A stretch of DNA of 24,000 bases. It comes from Lancefieldella sp. Marseille-Q7238 (GTDB lineage: Bacteria > Actinomycetota > Coriobacteriia > Coriobacteriales > Atopobiaceae). Positions 2,626-24,000 of this stretch are shown here, piece after piece. The notes below the pieces were generated by a model. The model had not been told where the DNA came from, searched no databases, and saw only the letters and a list, made by a program, of their open reading frames with translations. The DNA lies in contig NZ_OX424407.1 in the NCBI RefSeq assembly GCF_949152215.1, forward strand, positions 414,530-438,529, in the 5' to 3' direction. The position numbers were made by a program, and so were the translations under genes. Every line of letters begins with the position of its first letter. Position 1 is the first letter of the stretch.

Positions 2626-5603
<2,978 letters not shown>

Positions 5604-5731
5604 GAGTTCCCCTTTCGATGTGGGACTGCCCTTCCTTGACTCAGAAGTGTACGGAGGCCCCTTCCGTGATACCATGGCGGAAGAAACTGTCTTGACTGAC
5701 CTAACTTACACTCTTGTTTATCTAAGTGATG

Positions 5732-5767
5732 ACATGCAGATTTCCGTCTTATATCGTCACATGCAGA
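5732..5767. promoter_or_regulatory. Direct repeat ACATGCAGA x2 in the divergent araC-like/bgl control region; candidate regulator binding sites
   Basis: ACATGCAGA occurs at 5732-5740 and again at 5759-5767, 27 bp start to start. Both copies lie in the 208-bp intergenic region between the EIIBC start (5603, minus) and the AraC-family start (5812, plus). A GCATGC palindrome follows at 5771-5776. Confidence 0.3.
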
Positions 5768-5811
5768 AGAGCATGCTGTCCTCATAAATCCCCCCCTCTT
5801 GGAAGGAGCAG

Positions 5812-6810
5812 ATGATGGAAGAGGCTGAGCTCGATCAAGCACTCCGGGAAACAACGCCGGCAGAACTCCGCCATCGTATGGAAGGTCCCGGCCAGCTTTC
5901 CGAGCGCTATCGCAAGATTGGTAAGGTCATGGTCGATGGACGCGAAGTCTATCTCTTCACCTTCAACACGCTGCTGAAGGAATCGAACTTCTGTATCCGC
6001 AAGGAGTCCCGCTATACCCATATCCCCGACCATATCCACAAAGCCTCCGAGCTCCTCTATGTCTATTCCGGCTCCTGCACGCAGATGGTCGACGGGACCG
6101 AAGTGCGCATGTCTCAAGGAGATCTCTGCATCCTCGACTCGGGGGTCGTGCACAGCATCGGATACCTCGGCGAAGACGATATAATCATCACCATCGTGAT
6201 GCGCAAGGAATACCTCAAGCACAAGCTCCTGGGACGTCTGGGAGAAGGCGGCATCATCAATGCCTTCATAGCCTCCGCCATCTCGGAGCGAGCAGAGCAT
6301 GACAGCTTCTATGTGCTCAGGAATATGAGTTCCGAAGCCCGCCATCATATCGTACAGATCCTGAGCGAGTACTTCAGCCACGATGTCTACAACGAAGAGA
6401 TCATTGCTGCCGAGATGGTGCTCCTGTTCTGCAGGCTGCTGCGGCAGTTCCGCGATACCGACCTCCAGAAGAAGTCCCAAAAGAGCTTCGATATCTTGCC
6501 GGTCCTGCGCTACATCGAAGAGAACTATGCCGACGTGACGCTTGCCAAGGCAGCTGCGCACTTCGGGTTCAGCCCCAACTATCTGAGCAAACGCATCAGC
6601 TCAGAGACCGGACACACCTTCAAGGAGCTTGTAATCCTCCAGCGAATGAGCACGGCCTACTTCCGCATACAGAACTCCCAGGATCCTATAGCCGAAATCG
6701 CCGAAGAGGTCGGCTACGAGAATCTGAGCTACTTCTACTGCAAGTTTCAGGAAATCTTTGGCGTGAAGCCTGGCGCACTCAGATCAGGGCTTGGAGCTTC
6801 TTCCCTCTGA
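5812..6810 (+). CDS. AraC-family transcriptional regulator (cupin-like sensor plus AraC double HTH), 332 aa
   Basis: The C-terminal region is AraC-type HTH: YIEENYADVTLAKAAAHFGFSPNYLSKRISSETGHTFKELV...IAEEVGYENLSYFYCKFQEIFGVKP. A GGAAGGAG SD lies just upstream of ATGATG, so the start is 5812 or 5815. The gene is divergent from the bgl genes. Confidence 0.88.
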   Translation: MMEEAELDQALRETTPAELRHRMEGPGQLSERYRKIGKVMVDGREVYLFTFNTLLKESNFCIRKESRYTHIPDHIHKASELLYVYSGSCTQMVDGTEVRMSQGDLCILDSGVVHSIGYLGEDDIIITIVMRKEYLKHKLLGRLGEGGIINAFIASAISERAEHDSFYVLRNMSSEARHHIVQILSEYFSHDVYNEEIIAAEMVLLFCRLLRQFRDTDLQKKSQKSFDILPVLRYIEENYADVTLAKAAAHFGFSPNYLSKRISSETGHTFKELVILQRMSTAYFRIQNSQDPIAEIAEEVGYENLSYFYCKFQEIFGVKPGALRSGLGASSL

Positions 6811-7054: not shown

Positions 7055-7151
7055 ACGGACTAAGTTTCTATAAGGTAACTCTTTGAAATTGATCGCTGCC
7101 TCTGGGCATATACTTAAACGGTTCTGTCATTCAAGCCGTAAAGGAGTATCT

Positions 7152-8510
7152 ATGGACGAAATGAAAAGCATTACCTTCGATGACGTTTCTTCCGCGCAAG
7201 ACAACTTTGTCTCTGAGCGTGCGAACCTGGTTGCTAAAAACGCCGCCACTGCCGCCGGCGTACGCAAAGCAGCGCGCGTTCCCGAGGGTGTCGCGGAAAA
7301 TCCGCTGTCATTTGACATAGAGGTCAAGCAGGGTGAGCGTACCAATCAGAAGCACTCCGGCCGCTGCTGGATGTTCGCTTCTCTCAACACCTTCCGCTAC
7401 CGTATTATCAAAACATACAACCTTTCCACCTTTGAGCTTTCGCAAGCCTATCCCCTGTTCTGGGACAAGATGGAAAAATCTAACTGGTTCCTTGAGAATA
7501 TCCTCGATACCCTCAACGAACCGCTCAACGGTCGTCTTGTTTCGTTCCTGCTAACTGATCCCATCGGCGACGGTGGACAGTGGGATATGTTCAAGAGCCT
7601 CGTAAAGAAGTACGGCGTCGTACCCAAGGAAGCCATGCCTGAAACCGAGAACTCCAGCAATACGCATGACATGGACAAGTACTTGACTCGTTACCTGCGC
7701 GGAGCAGCTAAACGCCTGCGTGAGACACACGAAGCCGGAGAATCAGAGGAAACACTTCGAGAAATGAAGAAAGAAATGATGAGCGAGGTCTACGCCCTTC
7801 TCGTCACCTGCCTCGGAGAGCCTCCAGCGCGCTTTGAGGTACGCCTGCGCGACAAGGACGACAAACTCGTAGCTGCTGGCACCTACACTCCCCAACAGTT
7901 CTTTGACGAGTTTGTTGACATGAACCTTGACGATTACATCTCTCTCATCTCAGCTCCGACAGCCGACAAGCCTTTCAATCATACCTATACGGTCTCCCGT
8001 CTGGGCAATGTCATTGAAGACGGCGGCGTACGCTACATCAACCTTGAACCGAAAGAGCTCAAGCGCGTGGCCATCGCACAGCTTAAGGATAATCTGCCGG
8101 TGTGGTTTGGCTGCGATGTTGATCAGTCGTATCTCCGCGATGAAGGCATTATGGACACTCGTGCTTTGGATATCGACGCTCTTTTCGGCTTCCCGGTCGA
8201 AGGCGCGCTCAATAAGGCGGAGCGCCTTGACTATGGTGAGTCGCTCATGACGCACGCCATGGTACTTGAGGGTGTCAACCTTGATCAGAATGACAAACCG
8301 ACCCTTTGGAAGGTAGAGAACAGCTGGGGCAAGGATCACGGCCGCGACGGCTTCGATACTATTTCGGATTCCTGGTTTGATGAGTACGTCTACCAGGTCG
8401 TCGTTGACAAGAAGTATCTGACTGAAGAACAAAAGCACATCTTTGAGACTGAAACGCCAACGGTACTTGAACCCTGGGATCCCATGGGATCACTCGCCCG
8501 CTGCCGCTAA
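7152..8510 (+). CDS. pepC: Aminopeptidase C (peptidase C1-like, bleomycin-hydrolase family), paralog 1, 452 aa
   Basis: Track ORF starts at TTG 7083. I trimmed the start to ATG 7152, which is preceded by AAGGAG (7141-7146). The catalytic Cys is in NQKHSGRCWMFASLN, His in LMTHAMVLEG and Asn in VENSWGKDHG. The C-terminus reads EPWDPMGSLARCR. Confidence 0.92.
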   Translation: MDEMKSITFDDVSSAQDNFVSERANLVAKNAATAAGVRKAARVPEGVAENPLSFDIEVKQGERTNQKHSGRCWMFASLNTFRYRIIKTYNLSTFELSQAYPLFWDKMEKSNWFLENILDTLNEPLNGRLVSFLLTDPIGDGGQWDMFKSLVKKYGVVPKEAMPETENSSNTHDMDKYLTRYLRGAAKRLRETHEAGESEETLREMKKEMMSEVYALLVTCLGEPPARFEVRLRDKDDKLVAAGTYTPQQFFDEFVDMNLDDYISLISAPTADKPFNHTYTVSRLGNVIEDGGVRYINLEPKELKRVAIAQLKDNLPVWFGCDVDQSYLRDEGIMDTRALDIDALFGFPVEGALNKAERLDYGESLMTHAMVLEGVNLDQNDKPTLWKVENSWGKDHGRDGFDTISDSWFDEYVYQVVVDKKYLTEEQKHIFETETPTVLEPWDPMGSLARCR

Positions 8511-8560
8511 ACGCATATCGCAGCAACAGCGTTTTATGTAATTCACAGTAAGGAGACTGT

Positions 8561-10075
8561 ATGTCAGAAGCAACCATTGACCCCAAATGGGCCGCAAAAC
8601 AGCAAAAGGCATTTAGCAAAGATCGGGCTAATCGTATTGCACGTAACTCTGTCACGTCCATGGACGTTATGGCGGCGGCTCGTGACGTTACCGCCATGCG
8701 CAGCTACACCGATACGTACGGCATTTCCATTCCCAAGACCGGCGATATTACCAACCAGCGCCAAAGCGGCCGCTGCTGGATGTTTGCCGCCTTCAACGTC
8801 CTGCGTCAGGAAGCCATCAAATTTTTGGATGTGGATACGTTTGAGTTTTCGCAGGCATACGGTATGTTTTATGACAAGCTTGAAAAAGTCAATTCAACGC
8901 TTGAATACATCATCGAAACTACCAACAAACCTGCTGATGATCGCTTGGTGCAGACGCTTCTTACCGAGGGCATCGGAGACGGTGGCTATTATCCCTTTGC
9001 CATGAACTTAGTAAAGAAGTACGGCCTGGTTCCCAAGAGTGCCATGCCTGAGACTGCATGCTCTAAGAACTCAGACCAGATGGACGCACGCATCGACCGT
9101 CTTTTCCGCAAAGACGCCACACTGCTCCGCAAGGCCGCGGCCAACGGAGCAACCCTTGATGAGCTCCACGCAACCAAACAAAAAATGCTTGGCGATTTCT
9201 ACAAGATTCTTTCCGTCTGCCTTGGCGAACCGCCAATCAAGTTTGACTTTGAGCTCAAGGTTGGCAAGAATTGCAAGGCTGATGCCAAGAAGCTTTCCCC
9301 AATCGAGCCTTCCGAAAAAACAGACGATGCCGACTCCGCCAAAGAGAACCGCAAAAAGAATACTGCGAACAAAAAGGGCGAAACAGACGAGAAGGACGAG
9401 AAAGGCTCCCAGATTCTGCGCGACTTTGGTATTACGCCGCTCCAATTTGTCGAACGGTATTGCAACATCAACCCGGAGAACTTTGTTGCGTTGGTTTCCA
9501 TTCCCGGCACCCAGTTCCCCTACGGTAAGGTATATCGTGTCAAGCATGTTGATTCCGTTCTCGGTGGGCTGAAGACACGCTGCCTGAACGTTGAGCCTGA
9601 GGTTCTTGAGGCCGCAACCATTGCCTCTCTTAAAGCGGGACATCCGGTTGCCATGGCATGCGATGTCATGCAGGAATTCCCCCGTCGCATTCAGGATTTC
9701 AATTACGTCCTGTCTACCGATACCGTTGATTTCAACGGTCTTTTTGGCGTTGACTTTGACATGGATCGTACGTCCATGATTGACCACTATGAAACCTACC
9801 TCACGCACGCCATGACCTTCCAGGGCGTTGAGCTTGACAAAGACGGTAAGGCAAAGCAGTGGCGCATTGAGAACAGCTGGGGTAAGGATGCCGGTAAGGA
9901 TGGTTATCTCATCATGAGCGCCGATTGGTTCCGCCTCTACGGTGGAGAGTCCGACGTTCGCCGCGAGTACGTTTCCAAAGAGCTTCTTGAGCTTTGGGAC
10001 GACGAGTCAAAGGACGTTGAGGTGGAACTCTGGTCCGGTATGGGCCGCGCACTCGGCGGTCGCGGACGCAACTAG
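8561..10075 (+). CDS. pepC: Aminopeptidase C paralog 2 with a charged low-complexity insertion, 504 aa
   Basis: AAGGAG SD upstream of ATG 8561. The catalytic triad contexts NQRQSGRCWMFAAFN, YLTHAMTFQG and IENSWGKDAG are all present. A K/D/E-rich insertion of about 48 aa (CKADAKKLSPIEPSEKTDDADSAKENRKKNTANKKGETDEKDEKGS, nt ~9266-9409) is absent from paralog 1. The C-terminus reads ELWSGMGRALGGRGRN. Confidence 0.9.
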   Translation: MSEATIDPKWAAKQQKAFSKDRANRIARNSVTSMDVMAAARDVTAMRSYTDTYGISIPKTGDITNQRQSGRCWMFAAFNVLRQEAIKFLDVDTFEFSQAYGMFYDKLEKVNSTLEYIIETTNKPADDRLVQTLLTEGIGDGGYYPFAMNLVKKYGLVPKSAMPETACSKNSDQMDARIDRLFRKDATLLRKAAANGATLDELHATKQKMLGDFYKILSVCLGEPPIKFDFELKVGKNCKADAKKLSPIEPSEKTDDADSAKENRKKNTANKKGETDEKDEKGSQILRDFGITPLQFVERYCNINPENFVALVSIPGTQFPYGKVYRVKHVDSVLGGLKTRCLNVEPEVLEAATIASLKAGHPVAMACDVMQEFPRRIQDFNYVLSTDTVDFNGLFGVDFDMDRTSMIDHYETYLTHAMTFQGVELDKDGKAKQWRIENSWGKDAGKDGYLIMSADWFRLYGGESDVRREYVSKELLELWDDESKDVEVELWSGMGRALGGRGRN

Positions 10076-10144: not shown

Positions 10145-10786
10145 TTAGAACGTATCAAAGCGCGGTGCTTCCACCGTCGGCACAAGATCACCTGAGCCAA
10201 GTTCTCTCAGCGCATCCACAAACGCCGCCTCTTCTCCGCTTTTGAAATCCATTGCGAGAAGTACTTCCGCTCCAAAGTCGCTCCGTACTATCTTGCCCCC
10301 AGAATCAGAAACCATATGACATATCCGCTCGTAGCGCGTATACGGAACGCTCAGCACCACGCGGGTAACCAACCGCATTTCAACAAGTGAGTTGTTCTTC
10401 TCGGCATCCATAAGAGCAATCTGTGTCGCTGCGGTATATGCGCGGACCAAACCTCCCGGACCAAGCAACGTGCCGCCGAAGTAGCGCGTTACCACACAGC
10501 ATACGTCGGCAAGACCGGCGCCATGTAAAACCTCAAGGATTGGCATACCGGCGGTACGTGACGGTTCACCGTCGTCAGAGCAGCGCTCACGACCATCCGA
10601 AAGAACCCATGCCGGCACGTTATGGCGGGCGTCATGATAACGCGCGCGAACGCCGGCGATATAGTCGTTCGCCTCATCTTCGGACACAATATGAGTAAGT
10701 TGGGCAATAAAACGGCTCCGGCGATCCTCATAAATGCCGGTCGCTTCAAAGCCCGAAGCAAGCGTTTTGTATGACAAACGACTCAC
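10145..10786 (-). CDS. yigZ: YigZ / IMPACT-family (UPF0029) protein, about 213 aa
   Basis: Family motifs RRSRFIAQL, DDGEPSRTAGMPILEVL and VVTRYFGGTLLGPGGLVRAY are present. The track ORF begins at TTG 10816 and overlaps the upstream EIIA gene. I prefer GTG 10786 (MSRLSYKTL...), which matches the family N-terminal length. It sits 2 nt after the EIIA stop (TAA TA GTG), consistent with translational coupling. The start remains uncertain between 10816, 10786 and 10777. Confidence 0.8.
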   Translation of the reverse strand: MSRLSYKTLASGFEATGIYEDRRSRFIAQLTHIVSEDEANDYIAGVRARYHDARHNVPAWVLSDGRERCSDDGEPSRTAGMPILEVLHGAGLADVCCVVTRYFGGTLLGPGGLVRAYTAATQIALMDAEKNNSLVEMRLVTRVVLSVPYTRYERICHMVSDSGGKIVRSDFGAEVLLAMDFKSGEEAAFVDALRELGSGDLVPTVEAPRFDTF

Positions 10787-10788
10787 TA

Positions 10789-11337
10789 TTAGTTGGCAGC
10801 CTTCGCAGAGACGCAAAGGATGGGAGCGCCCGCTTCAATCTTTTCGGTCGGCTCTACGGGAGTAACGCCTGCAAGCTCAGAGGTATTGGTTATCGCAATG
10901 ATAATAACCTCAGGATGTTTCGCGGCGTGGATTTTTTTCAAATCAAAGCTCATGAGCGGTTGACCAGCCTTGACTTCCTCGTCCTGTTTGACAAAAGAGA
11001 TAAAGCCATCTCCGCGCATCTCAACAGTATCAACACCGACATGAATCAGAATCTCAAGGCCGTCTTTGGAGGTAAGGCCAAGCGCATGCATGGTTGGAGT
11101 GGTCGCACTGACAACGCCGCTTACTGGGGCGTAGATGACGCCTTCTTCGGGCCAGATACCATAACCCTCGCCCAAAACACCGCCGGAAAAAACAGGATCG
11201 GGAACATCGGCCAAGGCAACGCCACGACCCGTAGCAGGCGCGAAAACGGTCAGTTTTTTCTCATGTACGTGGATAGGCTCCGGCACGGCGTTCTTCTCGC
11301 CAGCAGACTGTTTCTTCAGAAAATCCAGTAGGCCCAT
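10789..11337 (-). CDS. crr: Stand-alone PTS EIIA, glucose family (Crr-like), 182 aa
   Basis: EIIA-Glc signature is present: TMHALGLTSKDGLEILIHVGVDTVEMRGDGF holds the two conserved His residues. I chose ATG 11337 as the start (MGLLDFLKK), preceded by GGGGGAG. An in-frame ATG at 11349 is an alternative. The track ORF extends to 11409. Confidence 0.88.
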   Translation of the reverse strand: MGLLDFLKKQSAGEKNAVPEPIHVHEKKLTVFAPATGRGVALADVPDPVFSGGVLGEGYGIWPEEGVIYAPVSGVVSATTPTMHALGLTSKDGLEILIHVGVDTVEMRGDGFISFVKQDEEVKAGQPLMSFDLKKIHAAKHPEVIIIAITNTSELAGVTPVEPTEKIEAGAPILCVSAKAAN

Positions 11338-17608: not shown

Positions 17609-18136
17609 TTAGAAGCAATATTCCTTTTGAAGTTCGCTGATACGGACACTGTCACCGGAATGCAACGCATCAGCCAGATCACAAATCGCGCGCAATGAAC
17701 GGTCAAGGCCAATCCCGCCCTTCTTGGGAGTTTTCACCAACGACACGCGGTCTTTGTAGACAGCAATAGTCTCTTCGTTTTCCTCGGAGAGTGCTGCAAA
17801 TGCCTGAGATGTACCCGTCTCCTGTACGGCAAGAGCAACTTCAGCAGCCATACGACCAAAACCGAGGTAATTGAAAGCGGGACCGCATATGACTACGTCA
17901 GGCTTTATCTTCTCGACCATAGCGCAATACTTGCGAAGGCATTCCTGTCTGTTTTGAGCATAGTAGCCGTCGCCACAGTACAAACACGCCAGAACATGAC
18001 CGTCAATTGCCTTCAAATATGGCTCCATCATGATTGCGGGTCCAACGGCACCCTTCATGATTCCCAAAGGAACCATATGATCATCTTTAATGCCGGCGCC
18101 CGCCTGGATCTGATCGAATACCATCACTATCTTCAT
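17609..18136 (-). CDS. Short GrdB/PrdB-family (selenoprotein B N-terminal region)-like protein, 175 aa, no Sec
   Basis: Track ORF is 17609-18484. I trimmed the start to ATG 18136 (MKIVMVFDQIQAGAGIKDDHMVPLGIMKGAVGP...LYCGDGYY...KPDVVICGPAFNYLGFGRMAAEVA). From memory, this follows the N-terminal pattern of glycine/sarcosine/betaine reductase component B (...INQFFAGIGGEE...ICGD.YF...AGPAFNAGRYG). The ORF ends at TAA 17609-17611 after only about 175 aa. The discarded 116 upstream codons are R/L/W-rich and overlap the EIIC 3' end. Confidence 0.55.
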   Translation of the reverse strand: MKIVMVFDQIQAGAGIKDDHMVPLGIMKGAVGPAIMMEPYLKAIDGHVLACLYCGDGYYAQNRQECLRKYCAMVEKIKPDVVICGPAFNYLGFGRMAAEVALAVQETGTSQAFAALSEENEETIAVYKDRVSLVKTPKKGGIGLDRSLRAICDLADALHSGDSVRISELQKEYCF

Positions 18137-18209
18137 ATGCAAATCCCGCCTTCCAAACGCGTCTAACCGCGCATACTTGCATTCAAAATCAAAACGAAAA
18201 TCGTACGCA

Positions 18210-19589
18210 TCACAGGTCATCAAAGGAAAGGTTATCAAGGTCGATATCGTCAGCCTCATCAGTCTTGGCCATCTTGGCAACGCTCTCCCGCTCTTCCTTA
18301 AGATATTCGTTATCCATAGCCTTAATAAACGGTATGTAGATAAAGACGCCCATAACAAGAAGGAGCGCTTGCAGGAGCGCACCGGCCCAGTTGGTAGCCA
18401 GGAAACCGGAAATAATAACCGGCATCGTCCAGGGAATATTGATACCTGAACATACCGGAACCAGTCCGAGCGACATACAAGCATAAGAAATTACGATATT
18501 GAGCGTCGGAACCAGCATAAAGGGAATTAACATCGCGGGGTTCAGCACAAGGGGAAGGCCGAAGACAATTGGTTCGTTGATGCCAAAAATACCGGGCACG
18601 AGAGCCAACTTTGAAAGTTTCTTTATGCGCTCAGACTTGCAAACCATAAACATGGCAATAACAAGAGAAAGCGTTGAGCCACAGCCGCCAAAAGTTGCAA
18701 AGAGATCTTGGAACTGTTGACAGATAATGTGAGGGGATCCAGCCCCAGTGGTAAAGAAAGCTACGTTTTCAGCTGAAAGCGTCTGAAGAATAGGATTGAA
18801 TACGGCGCCTACCACAGAACCGCCGTTGATGCCAAAGAACCAGAAAAGGTGCAGGAAGATATAGGCAACTACCATAGCCCCTAGCGTATCACCAAGATTG
18901 AGAAGCGGCGTCTGCAAAAACTTGTAAACGATGGTAAACGCATCGGTTTGCGCAAGACCGAGCACGAGGTTGATGCTAAAGAAAACAATCATAACAACGC
19001 AGGCAGGAATAAGTGCTGAGAAAGACTTGACGACAGTGGGAGGTACTCCGGGAGGCATCTTGATAGTCCAGCCCCTGTCTTCAACCCATTTATAAATGTG
19101 AACAGATACAAAAGCACAGATAATGCCGATAAAGATACCTTTAGCGCCGACCCATCCGGTAGAGATGCCTGGAATAGTCACAGCAGTCTTCTCGCCATTG
19201 ATAAGCGCAGATCCGTTCACCCAGTACGGCATAAGAAGGAACCAGGACATGACCGCAGTCGCCGCGGCAAAAATCTTATCCGTCTTCATCTCACGCGCAA
19301 ATGAATAAGCAATGCCGATCACAGCAAAGATTGCCATAATTGAAAAGGTTGCCGACGAGGGTTTAGACACAAAGGCTTCGAGCGTTTCACCAGTACTTTG
19401 ATTGATGACAACGGAGGAAAGCCACTCCGTCCAAGCCGGAATAGGAAAGTTGGCAATGAGTAGGAAAATCGAGCCAGCGATAAGCAAGGGCGTCAGAACA
19501 AGAAAGCCGTCGCGAAGCGCAACAAGATACTTGTTCTTACCAATAGCTTCCGCAAGCGGCAACAGCATTTTTTCAAGCCGTTCCATCAT
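18210..19589 (-). CDS. PTS EIIC, lactose/cellobiose (chitobiose) family, 459 aa
   Basis: The N-terminus MMERLEKMLLPLAEAIGKNKYLVALRDGF matches the CelB/ChbC-type motif. About 10 TM segments follow. An unusual ~35-aa acidic C-terminal tail is present (EERESVAKMAKTDEADDIDLDNLSFDDL). A GGAGAAAG SD lies upstream of ATG 19589. Confidence 0.9.
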   Translation of the reverse strand: MMERLEKMLLPLAEAIGKNKYLVALRDGFLVLTPLLIAGSIFLLIANFPIPAWTEWLSSVVINQSTGETLEAFVSKPSSATFSIMAIFAVIGIAYSFAREMKTDKIFAAATAVMSWFLLMPYWVNGSALINGEKTAVTIPGISTGWVGAKGIFIGIICAFVSVHIYKWVEDRGWTIKMPPGVPPTVVKSFSALIPACVVMIVFFSINLVLGLAQTDAFTIVYKFLQTPLLNLGDTLGAMVVAYIFLHLFWFFGINGGSVVGAVFNPILQTLSAENVAFFTTGAGSPHIICQQFQDLFATFGGCGSTLSLVIAMFMVCKSERIKKLSKLALVPGIFGINEPIVFGLPLVLNPAMLIPFMLVPTLNIVISYACMSLGLVPVCSGINIPWTMPVIISGFLATNWAGALLQALLLVMGVFIYIPFIKAMDNEYLKEERESVAKMAKTDEADDIDLDNLSFDDL

Positions 19590-20195: not shown

Positions 20196-20759
20196 TTACA
20201 GCTGACCGACAAGGTCAAGACCCGGCTTCAAAGTTTCGGCGCCGGGGTGCCACTTGGCAGGACATACCTGATCGCCATATTGCGCGACAAATTGAGCAGC
20301 CTGAAGCAGGCGCAAAAGCTCATCGGCATTGCGACCGATGCCACCGGCGGTGACCATCTCAACTTGAATGACGCCTTCAGGATCAACGATAAATGCGCCA
20401 CGCTCAGCCTGACCGGCTTCCTCTATCAAAACGCCAAAGTTTCTTGCAAGCACCTGCGCGGGATCGGCGAGCATCGGATAGGTTACCTTAGAGATACGCT
20501 CGGACTCATCATGCCATGCCTTATGCACGAATTCAGTGTCGCAGGAAACGGAATAAATCTCCGCGTCGATTTCTTGGAATTTGCTGTAGTTTTCTGCAAG
20601 ATCCTCAAGCTCGGTCGGACAGACAAACGTAAAGTCAGCCGGATAGAAGAAGAAAAGGCTCCACTTCCCCAGCGTGTCTGCTTTTGAGACAGTCTTGATT
20701 TCATTGTTTTGGAAAGCCTGCACCGTAAAATCTTTGATTTCGTTGCCAATCTGGGACAT
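20196..20759 (-). CDS. ahpC: Alkyl hydroperoxide reductase subunit C (typical 2-Cys peroxiredoxin), 187 aa
   Basis: The peroxidatic Cys is in FFYPADFTFVCPTE and the resolving Cys in VCPAKW. A GAAGGAGGA SD lies upstream of ATG 20759. No ahpF follows, and the terminator comes directly downstream. Confidence 0.93.
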   Translation of the reverse strand: MSQIGNEIKDFTVQAFQNNEIKTVSKADTLGKWSLFFFYPADFTFVCPTELEDLAENYSKFQEIDAEIYSVSCDTEFVHKAWHDESERISKVTYPMLADPAQVLARNFGVLIEEAGQAERGAFIVDPEGVIQVEMVTAGGIGRNADELLRLLQAAQFVAQYGDQVCPAKWHPGAETLKPGLDLVGQL

Positions 20760-20922: not shown

Positions 20923-20957
20923 GCGCTAGTACATAAATGCATAAAAAGTACTAGCGC
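20923..20957. other. 10-bp perfect palindromic hairpin overlapping the methyltransferase stop codon, in the ahpC upstream region
   Basis: GCGCTAGTAC (20923-20932) / GTACTAGCGC (20948-20957) flank a 15-nt AT-rich loop, ATAAATGCATAAAAA. The right arm contains the TAG stop (20951-20953) of the minus-strand methyltransferase gene. No T-run follows on the minus strand. Confidence 0.4.
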
Positions 20958-21751
20958 ACACGTTGGAACACAAGGTATCGGTTAAGATTTTCATCTTTCC
21001 CATCTGCGCTAAACTGCGCGCATATGCGCACGTGAGAGCCAAGCTGAGCAATAAGGTCATCAAGCTCGTCTTGTGTAAAGTGATGGCAGTATCGCCATGC
21101 ATGAGCTTCGTCCTGCCAGCCTAGCAGGTAGTCGTGTTCCTCTAAAACGTCTGCGTCCATCTGGAGCTGCTGCAAAGCCTGGGCTGTTGTTGTATTGGCT
21201 TTAGCGGCTAATTTGACACTGTTCATAAATTGCCAAAATGAGATACAGAGATATCCTCCCGGTTTGGTTTTGTCTAGCAGAGTACGCACAAGCTGCACCC
21301 GATTTTGAGCTCCCGGCACATGGTGCATAAAGCCAAAGGCAACTACTAAGTCAGAGGCCGGCATCTTCAGCTGAGACGCCAACGTATTGTCCAACAGGCT
21401 GTTCACTACATCCATTTTGACAAAGACAATCCGATCATCCGCCGCTCCGCAGTGAACCAGCGGCTCGCAATTATCTATCGCAACATACGCCGCGGGTTTG
21501 ACGCCCGATTTCATCACAAATCGAGCAAAGCGTAAGTTACCGCATCCCACATCAAGCACACGGGGCTTCTCGGCAGCCATAAAGCGAGGCATGGCATCCA
21601 AACACTGCTGCCAGCCTTGCCAAGGCGCCTGACGCGTGGCAGAGAAGCTCTGAGCCTGCTGCGCATAGAACTCAGAGGTAATGTGGCTGAGCAGACGCGC
21701 GGTCTGCTTGCTGTCAGATGAGGTACCGGCAATGTTCATATGAGTATTCAT
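20951..21751 (-). CDS. Class I SAM-dependent methyltransferase, Trm9/ALKBH8-MT-like, 266 aa
   Basis: SAM motif I is in PRVLDVGCGNLRF. The upstream segment EFYAQQAQSFSATRQAPWQGW resembles the Trm9-type '...FS.TR...W' lead-in. The later motifs VAFGFMHHVP, GGYLCISFW and WRYCHHFTQDELDDL resemble the Trm9 pattern (IHH..., ...W, RYYH.F..EL). The comparison to Trm9 is from memory and has not been searched. Confidence 0.6.
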   Translation of the reverse strand: MNTHMNIAGTSSDSKQTARLLSHITSEFYAQQAQSFSATRQAPWQGWQQCLDAMPRFMAAEKPRVLDVGCGNLRFARFVMKSGVKPAAYVAIDNCEPLVHCGAADDRIVFVKMDVVNSLLDNTLASQLKMPASDLVVAFGFMHHVPGAQNRVQLVRTLLDKTKPGGYLCISFWQFMNSVKLAAKANTTTAQALQQLQMDADVLEEHDYLLGWQDEAHAWRYCHHFTQDELDDLIAQLGSHVRICAQFSADGKDENLNRYLVFQRVR

Positions 21752-21757
21752 ACGTGG

Positions 21758-21814
21758 ATTTTATCTCACTATCGTTACCCCGACCGACGTGAAGTCAGGC
21801 TGACTGCGTATAAT
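21758..21814. promoter_or_regulatory. Back-to-back -10 boxes placed 6 nt from each divergent ATG; leaderless-mRNA architecture
   Basis: On the plus strand, TATAAT (21809-21814) is followed by 6 nt (GCGAGT) and then ATG 21821 of the Elp3-like gene. On the minus strand, TAAAAT (21763-21758) is followed by 6 nt (CCACGT) and then ATG 21751 of the methyltransferase gene. Neither ATG has an SD. Confidence 0.45.
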
Positions 21815-21820
21815 GCGAGT

Positions 21821-23671
21821 ATGAACGAACTCATATGGGACATACTAGAGAAACTTCGCGCGAGCTCTCAGAGCGCTCTTGACGCCCATCAGCTTGAGGT
21901 GTTGCTCCGCTCACACAGCGGTACTGTCAACAACATCAGCGGCATAGATAGCCCAAAACAGATTCCCAAACGTGCTGTCCTGCCCTATTTTTTACAGGTC
22001 AAGAACAAAAATGCTGAGCTGTGGCGCTCTTGGAACGTTACGCCCGAGCTGGAAGCGCGCTTTATACACTCGGTGCGCATGAAACCGCGGCGCACTGCCT
22101 CGGGTGTAGCCACCATTACGGTCATCACACGACCACATACCTGCTCAAGCAATTGCCTGTACTGTCCCTGTGATCTACGCATGCCCAAAAGCTATATTGC
22201 CAACGAGCCGGCCTGTCAGCGTGCGGAGCAAGCATTCTTTGACCCTTACGTACAAGTTGCCGCTCGTCTGCAAGCACTGCATCAGATGGGCCATTCCACA
22301 GACAAGATCGAGCTTATTGTACTGGGTGGCACCTGGAGTGATTATCCTGCGGACTATCAATACTGGTTCATAAGCGAGTTATTCCGCGCACTCAATGATT
22401 GGCCCCGTTCACCTCAGCAGATCGAGAAGCGCCTGCATTGGTATCGCTCTTTTGGATTGCAAAATACAGAAGAAGCGCTGTCTTCATTTGTTGCTCGTCA
22501 GCAAGCGGCCGTCAACGCGCATGCCGTAACGTATAATCAGGCCTTCCACAGGCTGTACGATACCAGCCAAGCACACCAAACTGCATGGTCTCATATGCGT
22601 GCTACTTTCGAAGATCTTCTTAAACAGCAACGTGCTAATGAGACTGCAGCCTGCCGCGTAGTGGGTCTGGTCATAGAAACGCGCCCTGATACGATCATAC
22701 CCGCAAACCTGCGCATGTTCAGACAGCTTGGCTGCACTAAAATCCAAATCGGCATCCAAAGTACCCGGCAGGAAATTCTTGATGCCAACTTACGCCAAAT
22801 GACTGTCGCGCAGATCAAACGCGCATTCTCACTTATTCGCCTCTATGGATTCAAGATCCACTCGCACCTTATGGTCAATCTGTTAGGTGCAACACCCGAG
22901 GCAGATAAGCAAGACTTTATCAATTTTGTAACTGACCCCGGCTATCTGCCCGATGAGATCAAACTCTATCCTTGCGCATTGGTAGACGGTACGCAACTGG
23001 TCAAGAAGTACCGGAAGGGACTCTGGCAGCCCTACTCCAAAAACGAGCTGGTAGATGTGCTGGTACACGACGTATTAGCGGCACCGACATACGTACGTAT
23101 TTCTCGTATGATCCGCGATATTAGTGCCACCGATATTTTGGTAGGCAACAAACACACAAACCTGCGCCAAATGGTCGAACAAGAGCTCAATGATGGGGAA
23201 AAGGCTTCCTGTGTACAAGAGATCCGCTTCAGGGAGATCAACCAGCAACAGGTAAGTGCAGCTGAGCTCAGCTTACAGGACTACACCTATACTACTGCCG
23301 TAAGTGATGAGCACTTTTTGCAGTGGGTAACGAGAGATAACAAAATCGCAGGTTTTTGTCGGCTCTCACTCCCACACTGGGATGAGCTGGCGGCAGGCAC
23401 ATGCGACGTACATGCCGATGAATTGATAGTCCAGCCGGATCAGGCGATGATCCGAGAACTGCATATTTATGGCCAGGCTTTGTCTCTGGGCTCAGAAGGC
23501 ATATCCGCGCAACATCAGGGTCTTGGCCAAAAGCTACTCGTACAGGCGGGTAAGATTGCTGCAGACGAAGGTTATACTGCCCTCAATGTGATCAGCTCCA
23601 TTGGCACACGCGCTTACTATCGTGCGCAGGGCTTTAAGGATGCCGACTTATATCAGCAAAAAGAGCTGTAA
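21821..23671 (+). CDS. elp3: Bacterial Elp3 homolog: radical SAM plus GNAT tRNA U34 (carboxymethyl) modification enzyme-like, 616 aa
   Basis: The radical SAM cluster motif is in RPHTCSSNCLYCPCD (CX3CX2C). It is followed by an Elp3-like block, SYIANEPACQRAEQAFFDPYVQVAARLQALHQMGHSTDKIELIVLGGTW. The C-terminal GNAT region reads IRELHIYGQALSLG...QHQGLGQKLLVQAGKIAADEGYTALNVISSIGTRAYYRAQGF. The track ORF starts at ATG 21740 and would overlap the divergent gene by 12 nt. I prefer ATG 21821 (MNELIWDILEKL) because of the TATAAT box 6 nt upstream. Confidence 0.85.
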   Translation: MNELIWDILEKLRASSQSALDAHQLEVLLRSHSGTVNNISGIDSPKQIPKRAVLPYFLQVKNKNAELWRSWNVTPELEARFIHSVRMKPRRTASGVATITVITRPHTCSSNCLYCPCDLRMPKSYIANEPACQRAEQAFFDPYVQVAARLQALHQMGHSTDKIELIVLGGTWSDYPADYQYWFISELFRALNDWPRSPQQIEKRLHWYRSFGLQNTEEALSSFVARQQAAVNAHAVTYNQAFHRLYDTSQAHQTAWSHMRATFEDLLKQQRANETAACRVVGLVIETRPDTIIPANLRMFRQLGCTKIQIGIQSTRQEILDANLRQMTVAQIKRAFSLIRLYGFKIHSHLMVNLLGATPEADKQDFINFVTDPGYLPDEIKLYPCALVDGTQLVKKYRKGLWQPYSKNELVDVLVHDVLAAPTYVRISRMIRDISATDILVGNKHTNLRQMVEQELNDGEKASCVQEIRFREINQQQVSAAELSLQDYTYTTAVSDEHFLQWVTRDNKIAGFCRLSLPHWDELAAGTCDVHADELIVQPDQAMIRELHIYGQALSLGSEGISAQHQGLGQKLLVQAGKIAADEGYTALNVISSIGTRAYYRAQGFKDADLYQQKEL

Positions 23672-24000
23672 AACTACATACATGCAATAAAGCCGGCATC
23701 AGATGACAGCTGCTCTATCTGATCAGACAAGAGGTGACAAAACCTTCTTAAAACCTGGCAAGAGATTGAAACGGCAAAATCAATAAGAAGCCTGCCACTT
23801 TTTTAAGCTGCCTAGCTGCCCCTTAAATCCCTACCTCAAAATTTCAGCATCAGATTGCTATTTAAAGGGCGCAGCCAATCGGCACACCTAGTGCTAAATT
23901 GAGCAACCTGAGAAATACAAGAGTTCATCGGCATTACAGCCGATTACTCAGCAGTAACCATCTGACCCGGATAACACTCTCAAAATCAGCGTAAAAGCAC

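Follow-up and report, generated by a model that had tools for sequence, protein, structure and literature searches.

In a 24,000-nucleotide stretch of the genome of Lancefieldella sp. Marseille-Q7238, a member of the Atopobiaceae (contig NZ_OX424407.1, positions 414,530 to 438,529 of the forward strand; hereafter the window, meaning this whole stretch), a gene for an Elp3 homologue stands back to back with a gene for a class I S-adenosylmethionine (SAM)-dependent methyltransferase. Judging from their sequences, the two genes probably form a module of eukaryotic/archaeal type for the wobble uridine (U34) of tRNA, in which Elp3 would produce 5-carboxymethyluridine (cm5U34) and the methyltransferase would convert it to 5-methoxycarbonylmethyluridine (mcm5U). 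Making mcm5U by way of Elp3 and Trm9 is considered a trait of eukaryotes and archaea; here the corresponding pair of genes is conserved in bacteria.

An earlier note on this DNA, made from the sequence alone, had suggested a two-step Elp3-Trm9 pathway for U34, and this candidate pathway is supported by the sequence comparisons and the synteny described below. The gene coordinates it gave are exact, as are the divergent orientation and the gap of 69 bp, and every motif it quoted is present: CX3CX2C (as CSSNCLYC), QHQGLG and GTRAYY in Elp3, and FSATRQAPW, VLDVGCG and RYCHHF..DEL in the methyltransferase. The two genes and the region between them are as follows.

20951..21751, minus strand: putative Trm9-like class I SAM methyltransferase, 266 aa (family profile, hhalign, AlphaFold2 model)
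21752..21820, no strand: divergent intergenic region of 69 bp, in which both promoters are presumed to lie
21821..23671, plus strand: Elp3 homologue, 616 aa, with a radical SAM domain and a GNAT/KAT domain (TIGR01211, Pfam, PDB relatives)

The Elp3 protein

By its sequence, the product of the plus-strand gene is a true Elp3, belonging to a distinct subfamily with an N-terminal extension, an insertion and no zinc motif. The curated Elp3 model TIGR01211 matches residues 51-616 of 616 with 402.5 bits (cut-off 350), and Pfam recognises Radical_SAM (PF04055, 38 bits against 29.5) and Radical_SAM_C (PF16199, 65.2 bits against 31.9). The GNAT model Acetyltransf_1 remains slightly under its cut-off (20.0 against 20.7), and the library searches proposed in the earlier note were positive for TIGR01211 and Radical_SAM, narrowly negative for Acetyltransf_1 and generic, in both Pfam and NCBIfam, for the methyltransferase. 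Solved bacterial, archaeal and eukaryotic Elp3 structures match the window protein at E values from 8e-79 to 5e-62, the best being the Dehalococcoides protein DmcElp3 (5l7j, E 8e-79) and an archaeal Elp3 (6iaz, E 3e-75). The order of radical SAM, Radical_SAM_C and GNAT domains is the same as in DmcElp3, MinElp3 and eukaryotic Elp3 (5l7j, 6iaz, 8avg, 6qk7), and the Fe-S cysteines, the acetyl-CoA motif and the catalytic Lys, Glu and Tyr are shared with these solved proteins. In the alignment to DmcElp3, the equivalents of K77, K193, E386 and Y441, its catalytic residues (PMC6367351), are conserved, and TDKIELI, GFKIHSH, QHQGLG, RELHIYG and GTRAYY align with their DmcElp3 counterparts. The Elp3 architecture claimed in the earlier note (radical SAM cysteines, Radical_SAM_C, GNAT motifs) is therefore borne out, and its adjective ‘divergent’ is apt, as the following features show.

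21821..22081, plus strand: N-terminal extension of about 87 aa; the 5l7j alignment begins only at query residue 88
22142..22165, plus strand: radical SAM cysteine motif CSSNCLYC (aa 108-115), aligned to CPGKCIYC of DmcElp3
22397..22636, plus strand: lineage-specific insertion of about 75-80 aa between ELFRALN and NETAACR, facing a gap in every solved Elp3
23213..23236, plus strand: VQEIRFRE, site of the three-cysteine zinc motif, aligned to CRCIRCRE of DmcElp3 and archaeal Elp3
23450..23620, plus strand: GNAT/KAT core, placed by alignment, with RELHIYG, the acetyl-CoA motif QHQGLG (aa 564-569) and GTRAYY (aa 595-600)

All aligned Coriobacteriia Elp3 proteins keep the CSSNCLYC motif and share the three divergent traits. 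The N-terminal extension, absent in DmcElp3, is conserved among them; the insertion after ELFRALN, which lies within the radical SAM domain and is not found in the Dehalococcoides type, occurs in all of them with a length of 75-100 aa (longer at loci L052 and L058 of the survey described below); and the zinc-motif cysteines are lost throughout, CRCIRC of DmcElp3 being VQEIRF in the window and in every aligned relative. Prokaryotic Elp3 is described as strictly conserving the three-cysteine zinc motif, which is missing from eukaryotic Elp3 (PMC6367351). Because eukaryotic Elp3 also lacks it, its loss does not exclude the window protein from the Elp3 family; compared with DmcElp3, the window protein alone has the extension and the insertion and is without this motif, the last being otherwise a trait of eukaryotic Elp3.

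The methyltransferase is a probable distant relative of Trm9

General libraries say little about the minus-strand gene: in Pfam the generic models Methyltransf_23/12/11/25 are above cut-off, and in NCBIfam no model is, the best being UbiG with 20.7 bits against 103. Yeast Trm9 itself matches nothing above cut-off in NCBIfam, and this library therefore cannot name a Trm9. An exhaustive search at E<1e-30 returned a family of 796 clusters at the 50%-identity level, and an alignment of 94 members (A1) has 20 invariant residues. When the A1 profile was compared with all PDB sequences, Yarrowia Trm9 (5cm2_Z) ranked first with E 1.2e-8, four orders of magnitude ahead of the other methyltransferases; the runner-up had E 1.7e-4, followed by UbiG (2.5e-3), CmoA (about 1e-2), an entry of the UbiE/COQ5 family (0.18) and 2i6g, a putative, TehB-like methyltransferase (0.86). 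CmoM was not among the A1 profile matches at E<=1. This ranking, in effect the placement that the earlier note had asked for, agrees with its view that the enzyme resembles Trm9 more than UbiE-type enzymes, and it is Trm9, not a small-molecule or rRNA methyltransferase, that comes first in the whole PDB.

Direct profile alignment with hhalign extends the similarity over nearly the whole protein, A1 matching yeast Trm9 (ScTrm9) with 98.0% and E 2e-13 over 223 columns (residues 13-265 against 6-279), and the Yarrowia crystal construct (YlTrm9) with 97.9%, in an alignment that resolves the C-terminal half. Identity between the methyltransferase and Trm9 is about 24%. An hhalign value of about 98% does not discriminate among class I methyltransferases, and weight is placed on the PDB ranking, the full-length coverage and the active-site residues. 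The yeast sequence used here was verified: its numbering fits all residues discussed in PMC4678810 and it matches 5cm2_Z with E 4.5e-71. An AlphaFold2 model of the window enzyme (predicted local distance difference test score, pLDDT, 95.3) has a Rossmann-like topology; compared with Trm9, it adds a helix at the N-terminus and, between W173 and W212, a helical insertion of about 30 aa. None of the 120 closest relatives is named TRM9 in any source; two large protein searches returned close relatives only, without distant taxa, and a cluster look-up of 10 divergent family representatives gave a single organism name, Eggerthellaceae. Taken with the residues discussed next, these comparisons support the methyltransferase as a distant Trm9 relative.

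Mutational work on ScTrm9 has defined which residues matter: alanine mutants of R29, D72, H116, W145, W168, R241, Y243 and N271 confer zymocin resistance, with activity abolished or strongly reduced, and in the ScTrm9 model R29, H116, R241 and Y18 position the cm5U carboxylate, whereas N271 and H115 read the uracil (PMC4678810). In a joint MAFFT alignment of 11 sequences (the window protein, five diverse family members, three Dehalococcoidia proteins introduced below and two Trm9s, with the yeast-specific insertion removed), R40, G71, D93, D134, H143, H144, G166, W173, W212, R220, Y221 and N257 (window numbering) are invariant. These columns cover ScTrm9 R29, D72, H115, H116, W145, W168, R241 and N271, so that seven of the eight essential residues are invariant (as R40, D93, H144, W173, W212, R220 and N257). 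Across the 94-member family, Tyr29 and Arg40 are likewise invariant, as are the SAM-binding LDVGCGN and Asp93. Most of these conserved residues are not part of the SAM-binding core, and a shared Rossmann fold therefore does not explain them. Their positions in the window are as follows.

20966..20989, minus strand: NLNRYLVF; Asn257 = ScTrm9 Asn271, with a proposed role in uracil-ring recognition (PMC4678810)
21077..21133, minus strand: DYLLGWQ....RYCHHF; Trp212 = ScTrm9 Trp168, Arg220 = Arg241, and Cys222 at the Tyr243 site
21314..21337, minus strand: FGFMHHVP; His143 = ScTrm9 His115, His144 = His116
21611..21670, minus strand: N-terminal Trm9-type motif FY..(x)..FSATRQAPWQGW; Tyr29 = ScTrm9 Tyr18, Arg40 = Arg29

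The pair is conserved across Coriobacteriia

A scan with the family alignment, using one genome per GTDB species, found at least 574 relatives, of which the best 80 loci were analysed. They come from Coriobacteriia (Atopobiaceae, Coriobacteriaceae and Eggerthellaceae), apart from two with the generic label Actinomycetes bacterium and six with doubtful bin labels, and their methyltransferases are 35% to 71% identical to that of the window. Elp3 lies at most 6 kb from the methyltransferase in 70 of the 80 loci, which is 70 of the 76 informative ones, and is directly adjacent in 61.

56 loci: adjacent and divergent
5 loci: adjacent and co-directional (four with Elp3 then methyltransferase, one with methyltransferase then Elp3)
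9 loci: divergent, 0.4-4.9 kb apart
6 loci: no Elp3 within 6 kb
4 loci: flank too short to tell

This pairing is far beyond chance. A lack of conservation in related genomes, which the earlier note had named as an outcome that would speak against its proposal, is not what is seen, the pair being kept in three Coriobacteriia families and in several arrangements. The same note's description of bacterial Elp3 as sporadic is understated, as the pair occurs throughout the class Coriobacteriia and in Dehalococcoidia as well. Compared with Lancefieldella parvula, the flanks differ, AhpC being on the opposite side in the window and AhpF missing, but the pair is unbroken.

A search for a third conserved gene at the pair (Trm112, thiolase) gave only antisense shadow open reading frames (ORFs), plus a cysteine desulfurase in one subgroup. 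In this Senegalimassilia-like subgroup, the gene of a NifS/IscS-type enzyme lies between those of the pair and runs in the same direction as the methyltransferase gene; the enzyme may supply sulfur for 2-thiolation of U34 (s2U34) or Fe-S clusters for Elp3.

L025 4758-5951, L027 4662-5852, L034 4846-5955, L055 4662-5852 and L082 4766-5950, all plus strand: cysteine desulfurase between the pair

Loci L068 and L042 have the desulfurase and the methyltransferase, with Elp3 not in the fetched flank.

The six doubtful labels all belong to ‘cleanbin’ records (L024, L042, L049, L050, L066 and L082), which are assigned to Oscillibacter, Butyrivibrio, Acutalibacteraceae, Methanomethylophilaceae, Bacteroidaceae and Prevotella; four of the six have Elp3 in the fetched flank. 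Spread of the pair beyond Coriobacteriia through these records was considered and rejected: their gene content is Coriobacteriia-like, L082 having the Senegalimassilia-type arrangement, and the labels are probably binning or labelling errors and not real spread.

A parallel pair in Dehalococcoidia

The Dehalococcoidia are an independent bacterial lineage with the same divergent design of Elp3 and a Trm9-like enzyme. A scan of metagenome contigs with the DmcElp3 sequence, rebuilt from its PDB alignment, gave 59 loci in which Elp3 has 800 bp or more of upstream sequence, and in 32 of these the gene directly upstream, in divergent orientation, encodes a methyltransferase of class I with about 215 aa; in about 12 others the methyltransferase is within 3 kb of Elp3. 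The Elp3 proteins of L084 and L085 are 98% and 91% identical to DmcElp3, and both have the methyltransferase.

L084, methyltransferase 5280-5960, minus strand, and Elp3 from about 5995, plus strand: Dehalococcoides-type pair, found also in L085-L163, with a gap of roughly 40-50 bp

The family of these methyltransferases (A2), with the motifs VPW, RYYxLF and SRNICL, has relatives in Dehalococcoides, Dehalogenimonas and other Chloroflexota, among them P0400 of Dehalococcoides mccartyi (91% identical), and the Joint Genome Institute labels many of them ‘tRNA (uracil-5-)-methyltransferase TRM9’. With hhalign, A2 is closer to yeast Trm9 (99.0%, E 8.8e-18) than A1 is, and it also matches the window family (97.5%, E 5e-12). 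Trm9 is second among the PDB matches of the A2 profile, with the longest coverage; the top match is 1ve3 (PH0226 of Pyrococcus horikoshii), with E 1.4e-20 over the core only. This uncharacterised archaeal methyltransferase is matched by yeast Trm9 too (E 8.5e-5) and may be an archaeal relative. Like the window enzyme, the A2 methyltransferase is bacterial, Trm9-like and divergent from Elp3 across a short gap. Unlike it, A2 is shorter, has no insertion and keeps the Tyr243 equivalent, and its partner Elp3 is of the short type with the zinc motif.

Proposed route to mcm5U and alternatives

In the route that we favour, and following the chemistry of its family, Elp3 would carboxymethylate C5 of U34 in a subset of tRNAs by means of its [4Fe-4S]/SAM radical domain together with its GNAT domain, which binds acetyl-CoA, and so give cm5U. 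The methyltransferase, as its active-site conservation and its linkage to Elp3 suggest, would then esterify the carboxyl group with a methyl group from SAM to give mcm5U, or 5-methoxycarbonylmethyl-2-thiouridine (mcm5s2U) if a 2-thiolation enzyme of the host acts too. The niche for uridines with a substituted methyl group at C5 (xm5U) would be vacant in these hosts, because MnmE and MnmG are reported, at the level of the phylum, to be absent from Actinobacteria, the one phylum that has lost both (PMC6063277). More speculatively, the methyltransferase probably works independently of Trm112, which we propose because no Trm112 gene lies beside the pair and the enzyme has its own extra N-terminal helix and insertion. 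A wider proposal, to which we would give slightly less than an even chance, is that Coriobacteriia and Dehalococcoidia make mcm5(s2)U by means of a mobile Elp3/Trm9-like cassette that has replaced the lost MnmE/MnmG, and that the Coriobacteriia enzyme is a Trm112-independent Trm9 with an active-site Cys.

Several observations weigh against the assignment of mcm5U synthesis to the pair. Mcm5U is made by Trm9-Trm112 in yeast and Haloferax, and both Trm9s need Trm112 (PMC4678810, PMC6144793); a Trm112-like small ORF is absent beside the pair in the window and in 64 related loci, where there is no room for one. The essential Tyr243 of Trm9 is Cys222 in the window enzyme and in at least 90% of its family, and the substrate pocket may thus differ from that of Trm9. 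A single-sequence search of the PDB found Trm9 only at E 0.21, third behind two unrelated methyltransferases, and Foldseek with the AlphaFold2 model returned generic class I methyltransferases, with Trm9 outside the top 50. We treat the Foldseek result as non-discriminating and not as negative, because the crystallised Trm9 is a truncated construct and the window family adds the N-terminal helix and the insertion. Lastly, six of the 76 informative loci have the methyltransferase without Elp3 within 6 kb.

The replacement of Tyr243 bears most directly on the main rival, in which the methyltransferase acts with Elp3 on U34 but its product differs from mcm5U, through a thiolated or otherwise altered side chain or methylation of another atom, giving a xm5U specific to bacteria. 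We consider this unlikely. Tyr243 contributes to catalysis in Trm9 (PMC4678810) and is here a nearly invariant Cys, the extra helical insertion sits beside the substrate-binding C-terminal half, and in some genomes the pair is accompanied by a cysteine desulfurase. The window family is also the most divergent of three Trm9-like groups (E 2e-13 for A1 against 9e-18 for A2). The residues that would hold the carboxylate and the uracil (equivalents of R29, Y18, H116, R241 and N271) are nevertheless all invariant, and the same chemistry is the simplest expectation. These residues count also against the notion that the enzyme is a generic small-molecule or protein methyltransferase whose position beside Elp3 is an accident of gene order inherited within one class. 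Pfam and NCBIfam, which see generic methyltransferase domains only, would fit such an accident, as would the top matches of the fold search, which are small-molecule O-, N- and C-methyltransferases; moreover, all 80 syntenic loci come from one class, shared ancestry inflating their count, and six of them have no Elp3 nearby. However, the adjacency has outlasted rearrangement into three relative orientations and a change of both flanks, and the pair is kept although identity drops to 35-45%. At such identities gene order is usually lost unless the genes are functionally linked. A separate phylum, Chloroflexota, has the same pairing with a related enzyme, and the Trm9-specific residues invariant here extend beyond the SAM-binding core, all of which makes an accident distinctly improbable.

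The doubt can also be turned on Elp3, which might here acetylate proteins or be a radical SAM enzyme of some other kind, the pair then acting on a substrate other than tRNA. Its subfamily is atypical in having a large insertion, an N-terminal extension and no zinc motif, the TIGR01211 cut-off is cleared by just about 50 bits, and the in vitro activity of DmcElp3 was only very weak (PMC7663514). Yet the window protein keeps the radical SAM cysteines, the acetyl-CoA motif and the residues matching K77, K193, E386 and Y441. It is tRNA, not peptides, to which Elp3 from bacteria, archaea and eukaryotes specifically responds (PMC6367351), and the partner enzyme has the uracil- and carboxylate-recognising residues of Trm9. 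Coincidental adjacency and a non-tRNA role of Elp3 are both unlikely, the latter very much so.

Relation to known systems

The closest known counterparts of the window methyltransferase are the tRNA (cm5U34) carboxyl methyltransferases Trm9, the methyltransferase domain of ALKBH8 and HvoTrm9 of Haloferax volcanii, which act in complex with Trm112. Trm9 and the window enzyme have in common the class I SAM fold, the F-S-x-T-R-x-x-W lead-in, the HH pair, two Trp residues, R-Y-x-H and a C-terminal Asn, and each has a genetic link with Elp3; for Trm9, gene clustering with Elp3 was noted in Sulfolobus in 2008 (PMC2584109). They differ in that the window enzyme has Cys in place of Tyr243, the added helix and insertion, no adjacent Trm112 and a bacterial host. 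Methyl-esterification of a wobble uridine side chain is known in bacteria from CmoM (E. coli SmtA), which converts uridine 5-oxyacetic acid (cmo5U34) to its methyl ester (mcmo5U34). CmoM shares with the window enzyme the class I fold (Foldseek ranks 24 and 36, 4htf and 8joz) and the SAM-dependent methyl-ester chemistry at U34 that we propose, but no specific sequence relationship is detectable between the two, and CmoM acts downstream of CmoA/CmoB, not of Elp3. The usual bacterial xm5U34 pathway, MnmE/MnmG with MnmC, MnmL and MnmM, has the same target, C5 of U34, and the same decoding purpose, whereas its enzymes are unrelated to the pair and its side chain is 5-carboxymethylaminomethyl (cmnm5) or 5-methylaminomethyl (mnm5).

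The presence of mcm5U in Haloferax was shown in 2018 (PMC6144793). Bacterial Elp3 has been described as confined to Dehalococcoides, with direct evidence for carboxymethyl-derived xcm5U in bacteria lacking because the hosts are hard to grow (PMC7663514), and bacteria have been said to have no genes resembling Trm112-dependent methyltransferases (PMC5372719). A 2026 Elp3 paper mentions Elp3 in ‘numerous bacteria’ and nothing more specific (PMC13315578). Automated pipelines already name the Coriobacteriia Elp3 proteins. In the open-access literature we found no report of a conserved bacterial Elp3/Trm9-like pair, the Dehalococcoides pairing included, and none relating the Coriobacteriia methyltransferase family to Trm9.

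Gene starts and surroundings of the pair

The nearest named genome is that of Lancefieldella rimae, with 71% identity in the methyltransferase and 86% in Elp3. An alternative start of the methyltransferase is possible at Met5 (21739). The Elp3 frame is also open from 21740, which would give a protein of 643 aa overlapping the methyltransferase start; 21821 is the likely start, because 119 of the 120 closest Elp3 relatives in the protein search are 617 aa long and a TATAAT hexamer stands just before its ATG. A public gene call, P0271 (643 aa), begins at the ATG at 21740 and overlaps the start-codon region of the methyltransferase.

21809..21814, plus strand: perfect TATAAT hexamer, 6 nt upstream of the Elp3 ATG (21821), read from the sequence

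The position of this hexamer suggests a leaderless or nearly leaderless Elp3 mRNA. Leaderless transcripts are common in Actinomycetota. A consensus promoter and terminator scan of the window gave nothing above shuffled background, the 69-bp spacer included, and no tRNA genes were found in the window. The 329 bp 3' of Elp3 (23672-24000) hold no ORF in any frame and no terminator-like hairpin.

On the other side of the pair, tandem aminopeptidase C paralogues, an IMPACT/UPF0029 protein and an EIIA component of a phosphotransferase system (PTS) (7083-10075, plus strand; 10145-11337, minus strand; 20196-20759, minus strand) are syntenic with L. parvula. Unlike in L. parvula, this EIIA-IMPACT-PepC block is set apart from the pair by about 9 kb of intervening genes. 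They encode a GFO/IDH oxidoreductase, a HAD hydrolase, an RDD protein, CutC, an M20 peptidase, an asparaginase and cellobiose-type PTS IIC and IIB components. AhpC occurs in the window without an AhpF partner. The ORF at 17609-18484 (minus strand) matches only the N-terminal half of PF07355 (glycine/sarcosine/betaine reductase selenoprotein B), covering 2-165 of the 347 positions in the profile. In its listed form it shares 275 nt with the PTS IIC ORF, and its true start is probably later, because the Pfam match begins at residue 117.

Implications

Carriers of the pair that can be cultured from the gut and the mouth (Lancefieldella, Collinsella, Adlercreutzia and Slackia) bring the question of (m)cm5U in bacteria within experimental reach. 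Along with this question, two others become testable: how Actinobacteria decode split codon boxes without MnmEG, and whether an enzyme of the Trm9 type can work without Trm112. Annotation would be corrected, too, for a large family, of about 800 clusters at the 50%-identity level, whose members are at present named just ‘class I SAM-dependent methyltransferase’.

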